A stretch of 64,000 bases of DNA, taken from the sequence record PV714129.1; one strand, 5' to 3'. Below the pieces are notes generated by a model. That model searched no databases. It was not told the origin of the DNA and saw nothing but the letters and a program-made list of their open reading frames with translations. Numbering within the stretch: position 1 is the first letter of the stretch; every line of letters starts with the position of its first letter. Source of the DNA: Escherichia phage Mizar. The position numbers were made by a program, and so were the translations under genes. This document shows, in pieces, positions 49,182-50,600 of the stretch.

Positions 49182-50600
49182 TTATGGATATGTATAGATG
49201 ATACCAGTTTCCAAAGCAGTTTTATGGATGATGTATCCATTACGTGATTCTTGAACATCAACTTCTGGATAGTCTTCCATCATCTTCTGAAGAGTGTAAC
49301 GATGCAGGTAGTATTTACTATCTGGATCTTCAGTTTTCCAATCTTTACCTTCTTCAGTCATTTTTTGGATTTCATCCATAACCCACCAACCGCACCAGAT
49401 GTAAGCTGAAGTACGATGTGGAAGAGGATGAACATAAGGTAATTCACCTTCTGGTTCTGGAGCAACTTTATCGGTTACCTGAACTTGACCTTCTGCTGTA
49501 ATAGTTTTGCTATCATAGTCATCTGCAGTAACGATGGCAGTCACTTCAATAGTTTGACTTCCAACAGATGAAGTATCAACGGTATATACATTAGTTGACC
49601 CTTCTACAGGAGAAGAATCTTTCTTCCATGAATATTCAATTTGCGCTTCTTCTGGAGCATCAGTGACATTAGCGGTAAATGTAGCTGAAGCATCTTGCTG
49701 AACGTTAATAGAAGGAGGAGTCAATGTAACCTGTGGATTCATTGACTTCTTATTAACCGTTAATGATACTTCATTAGAAGTAACTTCCTTTTCATTGTAA
49801 TTTTCAGCAGTTACTTGGGCTACGCATTTAATTCTTTTTACTCCACTTGTAGTTGGAGTATAATTAAATGTAGAGTTAGTTTCTCCACCAACTTGTGAAT
49901 CATCTACATACCACTGATACGTAGCAGACGCTCCAGCCGGTTGAGAAGCTAAGGCAGCAGTAAATTGAACTGGGGTTCCAATTACTCCAGCTGAAGGACT
50001 ATCAGGAGTTACTGCCAAGGTAGTTGTCTGTGTCTTTTTATTAACAGTCAGTGATACTTCATTAGAAGTAACTTCTTTTGTGTCATAGTCTGTTGCCGTC
50101 ACTTGGGCTACACATTTAATTTTTTTAACTCCGCTTGTGGTAGGAGTGTAATTGAATGTAGCAGAAGTTGCTTCGCTCACAGGAGAACCGTCAACGTGCC
50201 ATTGATACGTAGCAGATGCGCCTGACGGTTGAGAAGCTAAAGCCGCAGTAAATTTAACAGCTGTTCCGATTACTCCAGCAGCAGGGCTATCAGGAGTTAT
50301 AGCCAGAGTAGTTGTCTGAGTTTTATTTTTAACTGTGATAGTTGCAGTAGTTTCTGCTGTTTCAGCTTCAGCTTCTGGAACTGTATTTGTTGCAACTACT
50401 TTAATAGTCTTTTGACCGGCAGGTCCTTTTAGTACATAACTAAAAGTTGCTTCAGCTCCATCTTGCGGAACACCATCCAAAGTCCAAGCATATGTAATAG
50501 TTCCACCTTCAGCCTGACCACTAGGTGTGGCAGTAAACTGCTGGGTCTGTCCTATAACTCCAGTAGGTGTTTTAGGATTTATATTAACTGTAAAAGCCAT
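49182..50600 (-). CDS. hoc: outer capsid decoration protein Hoc with four Ig-like domains
   Basis: Repeated Ig-like modules plus C-terminal capsid-binding region; 472 aa versus 376 aa in T4. Confidence 0.8.
   Translation of the reverse strand: MAFTVNINPKTPTGVIGQTQQFTATPSGQAEGGTITYAWTLDGVPQDGAEATFSYVLKGPAGQKTIKVVATNTVPEAEAETAETTATITVKNKTQTTTLAITPDSPAAGVIGTAVKFTAALASQPSGASATYQWHVDGSPVSEATSATFNYTPTTSGVKKIKCVAQVTATDYDTKEVTSNEVSLTVNKKTQTTTLAVTPDSPSAGVIGTPVQFTAALASQPAGASATYQWYVDDSQVGGETNSTFNYTPTTSGVKRIKCVAQVTAENYNEKEVTSNEVSLTVNKKSMNPQVTLTPPSINVQQDASATFTANVTDAPEEAQIEYSWKKDSSPVEGSTNVYTVDTSSVGSQTIEVTAIVTADDYDSKTITAEGQVQVTDKVAPEPEGELPYVHPLPHRTSAYIWCGWWVMDEIQKMTEEGKDWKTEDPDSKYYLHRYTLQKMMEDYPEVDVQESRNGYIIHKTALETGIIYTYP
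49746..50321 (-). repeat. tandem duplication (2 x 288 bp) encoding two near-identical Ig-like domains within hoc
   Basis: Protein units TQTTTLA(I/V)TPDSP...EVTSNEVSLTVNKK repeated back to back; nucleotide units are visibly similar (identity not computed). Confidence 0.8.

Follow-up and report, generated by a model that had tools for sequence, protein, structure and literature searches.

[quoted passage not shown] It is also probable, at a slightly lower level of confidence, that the domain-2 module is a cassette of variable copy number (one, two or three in-register copies, with position-specific loop types) which segregates among near-isogenic Mosigvirus and Tequatrovirus phages.

The hoc gene and its domains

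The gene corresponds in the ORF list to a reading frame of 472 aa plus the stop codon (49182..50600, minus strand, 1419 bp). It is followed directly 3' of the stop codon by a terminator-like element, a GC-rich hairpin and then a T-run, detected by a consensus scan (49160..49177, minus strand). Phage G53 has an annotated terminator at the corresponding site 3' of hoc (180-195 in the G53 locus piece). The number of sigma-70-like promoter sites around hoc found in the consensus scan is not above that in shuffled controls. The gene order is RNA ligase, two small ORFs, hoc, inh (222 aa) and a helicase gene on the opposite strand; the same order is annotated in phages LF82-41, FP43 and AR1, and the position of hoc is thus conserved. 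The T4 names of these neighbours are rnlB (RNA ligase), 24.2, 24.3 and uvsW (helicase).

In a phmmer search of the 472-aa query against the PDB sequences, Hoc of phage T4 (5vf3_Z, 376 aa) was matched with E=4e-215. The alignment consists of two collinear stretches, in which residues 1-113 of the window protein correspond to T4 residues 1-113, and residues 189-472 to T4 residues 93-376; the protein can therefore be described as T4 Hoc with one 96-aa module added. The lengths given in the earlier sequence-only reading (472 aa here and 376 aa in T4) agree with the ORF and with this alignment. T4 Hoc (PDB 5vf3, 8t1x) is encoded at the same gene position, and its D1, D3 and C-terminal domain are collinear with, and nearly identical to, those of the window protein. 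Judged by alignment and gene order, the call of the gene as hoc is right; homologous records also carry the annotation Hoc or Hoc-like head decoration.

Starting from the N terminus, Ig-like domain 1 (aa 1-92; 50325..50600, minus strand) aligns to T4 Hoc 1-92 and is predicted as a beta-sandwich with pLDDT of ~90. It is followed by the extra module D2a, copy 1 of the repeat (aa 93-188; 50037..50324, minus strand), delimited by the repeat searches, with a type 1 loop, SPVSEATSA, and pLDDT of 89-96. The module D2b, copy 2 of the repeat (aa 189-284; 49749..50036, minus strand), corresponds to T4 residues 93-188 in the HMMER alignment and is the nearer of the two copies to domain 2 of T4 Hoc; it has a type 2 loop, SQVGGETNS. 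The fourth Ig-like domain (aa 285-378; 49467..49748, minus strand) aligns to T4 residues 189-282 as the orthologue of T4 domain 3; it is also marked by Pfam Ig_3/I-set matches at aa 289-373 and by AlphaFold2 strands at 290-376. The linker and C-terminal capsid-binding domain (aa 379-472), together with the stop codon, occupy 49182..49466 on the minus strand and are nearly identical to T4 Hoc 283-376.

A string of Ig-like (PKD/I-set-like) domains at the N terminus, characteristic of Hoc, is found by Pfam, AlphaFold2 and Foldseek. In Pfam, the N-terminal 376 residues match PKD (E=9.6e-12, in three stretches, the best of which, aa 195-267, lies inside D2b) and also Ig_2, Ig_3 and I-set. The AlphaFold2 model, which was calculated from a shallow alignment of 28 closely related sequences, contains four all-beta domains (~1-91, 93-187, 189-283 and 285-376) with pLDDT mostly of 87-96 per block and, by the overall figure given for the sandwiches, >90. 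The C-terminal domain is poorly modelled (pLDDT <50), and for this reason the inter-domain geometry of Hoc is not fixed by the model. The top Foldseek hits in the PDB are proteins built of several Ig-like or comparable beta-sandwich domains in a row (E ~1e-12), among them the four-Ig ectodomains of ICAM-5 (D1-D4) and Dscam1 (Ig1-4).

The alignment and the predicted model support the view that Hoc in the window has one Ig-like domain more than T4 Hoc, the surplus domain being paralogous to domain 2 of T4. In comparison with T4, the additional 96-aa module (aa 93-188), which has a distinct central loop, is placed between D1 and the T4-like D2. The sequence-only reading had proposed such an extra domain and had considered that T4 Hoc might have the same domain count; the first stands, on the T4 alignment and the four AlphaFold2 domains, while the second fails, T4 Hoc having one domain fewer.

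The C-terminal domain, delimited here as aa 377-472, aligns with few substitutions to T4 Hoc 281-376, and the YVHPLPHR, CGWWV (WW) and QESRNG (ESRNG) motifs are all retained. The residues of T4 Hoc that contact gp23, and the importance of the motifs in this domain, have been described (PMC10385173). Hoc of the T4 type sits as a single monomer in the middle of each gp23 hexamer of the mature capsid and is not needed for infectivity. From the near-identity of the binding domain we infer that the window protein would bind the centres of gp23 hexamers as T4 Hoc does, the expected site being the same (PMC10385173).

The 288-bp repeat

Two repeat searches detect the duplication. Tandem Repeats Finder gives a period of 288 bp with 2.0 copies at 49746-50333 (79% matches, score 725), and a separate repeat search of the window gives the units 49743-50030 and 50031-50318 with 78% identity. 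Both uphold the 288-bp tandem repeat, its unit lengths and its location (49746-50321) as first proposed from the sequence. An in-frame repeat of 288 nt at 78% identity is far beyond chance. At the protein level, residues 93-188 and 189-284 are identical at 78 of 96 positions (81%), as against 27-38% for all the other pairs of Ig domains in Hoc. The description of the copies as near-identical was, however, too strong: the DNA of the two copies differs at 63 of 288 nucleotides, and the longest exact run common to both is 24 nt.

The codon differences between the copies comprise 32 synonymous and 18 non-synonymous changes, which by the Nei-Gojobori method correspond to dS=1.10, dN=0.107 and dN/dS=0.10. 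Since dS is saturated, the duplication appears to be old; by these substitution rates the copies separated long ago and purifying selection has evidently maintained both of them. The amino-acid differences are found mostly in predicted loops (13 of 18, with loops making up 45% of the module residues), and cluster at module positions 46-55 and 78-82, two predicted loop patches. Differences between alleles of different phages fall in the same two patches (49749-50324 in the window). The second patch (TATDYD.. or TAENYN..) assorts independently of copy position. The pattern of the loop patches suggests patch-wise gene conversion or diversifying selection.

Copy number of the module in related phages

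By sequence comparison, the window phage is evidently a Mosigvirus-type T4-like phage with Escherichia phage FP43 as its closest relative. Over positions 40000-60000 of the window, the identity is 98.6% for FP43, 98.2% for LF82-41, 97.9% for each of TH12, SHSML-52-1 and LH01, and 97.8% for p000v. All of these except FP43 align in two or three pieces. In TH12, SHSML-52-1, LH01 and p000v the span in the record is 286-297 bp shorter than the query, which for SHSML-52-1, LH01 and p000v fits one copy of the module, as judged solely by span length. TH12 and LF82-41 encode 376-aa Hocs, with one copy, and FP43 has two. The span of LF82-41 is longer because of an extra gene for a homing endonuclease. 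This gene lies between inh and the helicase gene (PV660463, 3359-4090 in the locus piece), at a site where the window has a 50-bp spacer (51279-51328).

The single modules of TH12 and LF82-41 were compared with both copies from the window. The first ~200 nt of the TH12 module are 100% identical to copy 1 and the last ~15 nt are copy-2-like, with an intervening 49-nt patch unlike either copy; the best chimera, switching from copy 1 to copy 2, matches at 278 of 288 nucleotides, compared with 272 when copy 1 is taken alone and 230 when copy 2 is. The LF82-41 module is copy-2-like (266/288), with the first three informative sites, within the first 18 nt, copy-1-like, so that a 1-to-2 chimera reaches 269 and gains 3 sites. 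These patterns fit in-register recombination between copies or between alleles, and the modules show further mosaicism. CCU7 (PV806175, 1501-3204 in the locus piece) and P0048 encode a mosaic Hoc of 567 aa, in which D1 and the first module, nearly identical to the window, are followed by three divergent Ig-like domains and the conserved capsid-binding domain. Taken at the level of sequence, hoc looks like a hot spot of recombination at domain boundaries, and the copy number of the module is evidently polymorphic over evolutionary time.

A megablast search with hoc against 50,697 phage records matched 658 of them. The class frequencies come from an evenly spaced sample of 60 of the 658 records and from the 120 protein clusters most similar to the query. 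About one third of the sampled records (21/60) match over 1419-1425 bp in one piece, indicating two module copies, and 23/60 match over ~1131 bp in two overlapping pieces, indicating one copy, as in T4; in one (CCU7) the match spans 1704 bp. Among the best 120 clusters of a collection of 5.8 billion proteins, 81 belong to the class of 376-379 aa, 30 to that of 468-472 aa and 9 to that of 567-570 aa. The length classes of 376, 472 and 568 aa correspond to 1, 2 and 3 copies of the 96-aa module, which answers the comparison of hoc lengths among related phages proposed with the first reading. Several of the 472-aa clusters have tens to more than 100 members.

The long gene is found in both genera, in Tequatrovirus AR1 (annotated hoc, 1425 bp) and in Mosigvirus G53, moskry and FP43. 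The gene of FP43 matches that of the window at 99.1% identity along all 1419 bp and shares its two-copy structure. The Hocs of FP43, G53, moskry, slur02 and AR1 (472-474 aa) have the same five-part architecture and the 288-bp repeat at 89-99% nucleotide identity, and differ from the window Hoc only by allelic point differences. The 568-aa Hocs (UGKSEcP1/UGKSEcP2 and related, P0001-P0008) share D1, D3, the C-terminal domain and the module family with the window but have the module three times in tandem, where the window has it twice. The long Hoc is therefore an allele of a well-known protein that is old and widespread and has already been deposited and in part annotated; as such it is already known.

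The annotation of the long gene in public records varies. A 533-bp repeat_region is annotated inside hoc in the GenBank record of moskry. The FP43 gene (MN648445, 1501-2919 in the locus piece) bears the label 'baseplate wedge subunit', apparently an error of annotation; 'PKD domain protein' is used for other 472-aa Hocs and 'endonuclease [Shigella sonnei]' for one cluster. Such names (cf. P0016) look like errors or are uninformative. In Yersinia phage PST (NC_027404, 201-1620 in the locus piece) the match to hoc is 1420 bp long, one base more than the gene in the window. Of this match, the annotated hoc CDS takes up only 930 bp, which suggests a frameshift, either in a truncated gene or through a sequencing error.

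The copies can be assigned to types by four diagnostic positions in the central loop, P/E/A/A for type 1 and Q/G/E/S for type 2. Type 1 stands first in 30 of the 31 two-copy clusters and in 8/8 three-copy clusters, and the last copy in the multi-copy clusters is mostly of type 2. Single-copy clusters are of type 1 in ~23 cases and of type 2 in ~45 to 50, the remainder being hybrid; the T4 module counts as type 2 by its central loop, and its C-terminal patch resembles that of copy 1. The first copies of the 31 two-copy clusters are on average 88% identical in amino acids to each other and to the first copies of the three-copy proteins, in comparison with 79.5% between first and second copies across the 31 clusters. 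Within one protein the identity of the copies ranges from 56% to 85% and is never >85%. This position-specific likeness shows one or a few old origins of the module copies, followed by inheritance and exchange, and not repeated fresh duplications.

Origin of the copy-number classes and meaning for the Hoc fibre

The most probable course of events is that the tandem repeat of 2 x 288 bp arose long ago and that both copies have been retained by purifying selection, while alleles of differing copy number circulate in near-isogenic phages, most likely through homologous recombination, in register, inside one hoc allele or between different ones. Two routes to the present classes may be considered. 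A two- or multi-copy gene may be ancestral in the clade, the 376-aa Hocs then being the product of repeated independent deletions by in-register recombination between copies; this is possible, though short of an even chance. Single-copy Hocs indeed carry the signature of either copy 1 or copy 2, as if either had been lost, and the switches in TH12 and LF82-41 are both from 1 to 2, the direction which deletion predicts. On the other hand, the T4 module has the opposite order, a type-2 centre and then the copy-1-like C-terminal patch, the 49-nt patch of TH12 resembles neither copy in the window, and the gain in LF82-41 consists of only three sites. Moreover, distant Hocs such as that of RB49 also have three Ig domains (PMC10385173). 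A simple one-step deletion thus fits the single-copy relatives only partly, in view of the TH12 patch, the three-site gain and the reverse order in T4. The pattern of the T4 module points to repeated mosaic exchange and not to one simple deletion.

Somewhat less likely, and best regarded as tentative, is the reverse order of events, in which divergent single-copy alleles of type 1 and type 2 came first and multi-copy genes were formed by unequal, out-of-register recombination during co-infection. The 'duplication' would then be a fusion of alleles, and the 78% identity would have been present already at its birth. Both types do exist as single copies in near-isogenic phages (TH12, type 1; LF82-41, type 2), hoc is mosaic, as in CCU7/P0048, and three-copy forms exist. 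This route requires an out-of-register crossover at short homologous domain boundaries, however, and the first position of type 1 in 38/39 multi-copy clusters fits a single old origin equally well, so the present data do not separate it from an ancestral multi-copy gene with later deletions.

It is very improbable that the tandem duplication is recent and confined to this genome, with near-identical copies prone to loss or amplification in the phage population. As such an event would produce, the modules follow one another directly and in frame, both measure 288 bp, and their copy number varies among relatives. It would also be expected to leave near-identical synonymous sites, long stretches of homology and a structure absent from relatives; what is found is dS of ~1.1 at 78% DNA identity, perfect homology of no more than 24 nt, and the same structure in FP43 at 99.1%. 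Many independent isolates from two genera carry this two-copy gene, complete with its position-specific differences, and no two-copy cluster has copies >85% identical. The saturated dS and the position-specific orthology lead us to reject a recent duplication, and with it the idea that the repeat belongs to this genome only, given the two-copy gene in many Mosigvirus and Tequatrovirus genomes.

The suggestion that the repeat may be unstable holds in so far as copy number differs between close relatives. Present-day instability is unsupported, because the structure of FP43 is the same and no cluster has homogenised copies. Homologous deletion between copies of this identity and with such short perfect homology should be rare per generation. 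Instability is thus unlikely on laboratory time scales, and the sequence comparisons support lability on the evolutionary scale only. A mis-assembly of repeat reads as the source of the second copy, for which the only argument is the general liability of assemblers to errors at tandem repeats, has a negligible probability and is rejected, since reads of at least 100 nt would place uniquely in copies so distinguishable, the reading frame is open across both copies, both bear the signature of purifying selection, and dozens of assemblies made independently show this architecture, with annotated 472-474-aa CDSs.

For the common long allele, the consequence would be a longer fibre. One Ig domain adds ~40 Å to a fibre. 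By this estimate, and if the extra domain extends the fibre in a straight line, the Hoc fibre of the window phage would exceed the ~18 nm fibre of T4 by about the length of one Ig domain, roughly 4 nm. It may also present a further Ig surface, of slightly different make-up, through which the phage could adhere weakly to glycans or cell surfaces. For T4 Hoc a fibre length of ~180 Å has been published, and homologues with 1 to 10 Ig domains have been described (PMC10385173), as has a three-domain variant without D3 (PMC11853027); wide variation in domain number among Hoc proteins is also published. The Hocs of PhiPNJ-9 (without domain 3), Klebsiella phage PMBT63 (four Ig domains) and Serratia phage Muldoon (10 Ig domains) likewise carry strings of Ig domains on a conserved capsid-binding domain, but they are far more divergent, whereas the window case is a change in copy number of one module among very close relatives. 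In the literature searched we found general statements on the number of Ig domains and no explicit description of a copy-number polymorphism of the 288-bp module in Mosigvirus or Tequatrovirus.

T4-type Hocs bind fucose residues of MUC2 (PMC11150434, PMC11853027), and binding of mucin glycans by capsid Ig-like domains, the mark of mucus-adherent phages of the BAM type, has been demonstrated for the Hocs of T4, PhiPNJ-6 and PhiPNJ-9. An effect of the extra domain on adhesion, through greater reach or valency in such weak binding, is plausible; the papers found gave no adhesion data on this four-Ig class of Hoc alleles.

For this genome itself the long Hoc is of little significance, being routine in public T4-like phage genomes. 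The names 'PKD domain protein', 'baseplate wedge subunit' and 'endonuclease' given to hoc in several records are a warning to annotators. What value there is, a modest one, lies in the comparison across phages, where the module is present at one, two or three copies in phages otherwise ~98% identical. If the reading of the module as a cassette is true, nature would already offer a series of Hoc fibres graded in length and valency on otherwise ~98%-identical virions. Such a series would be useful in tests of adherence to mucus or cells, of immunogenicity and of Hoc as a display scaffold, as a convenient experiment rather than a surprise.
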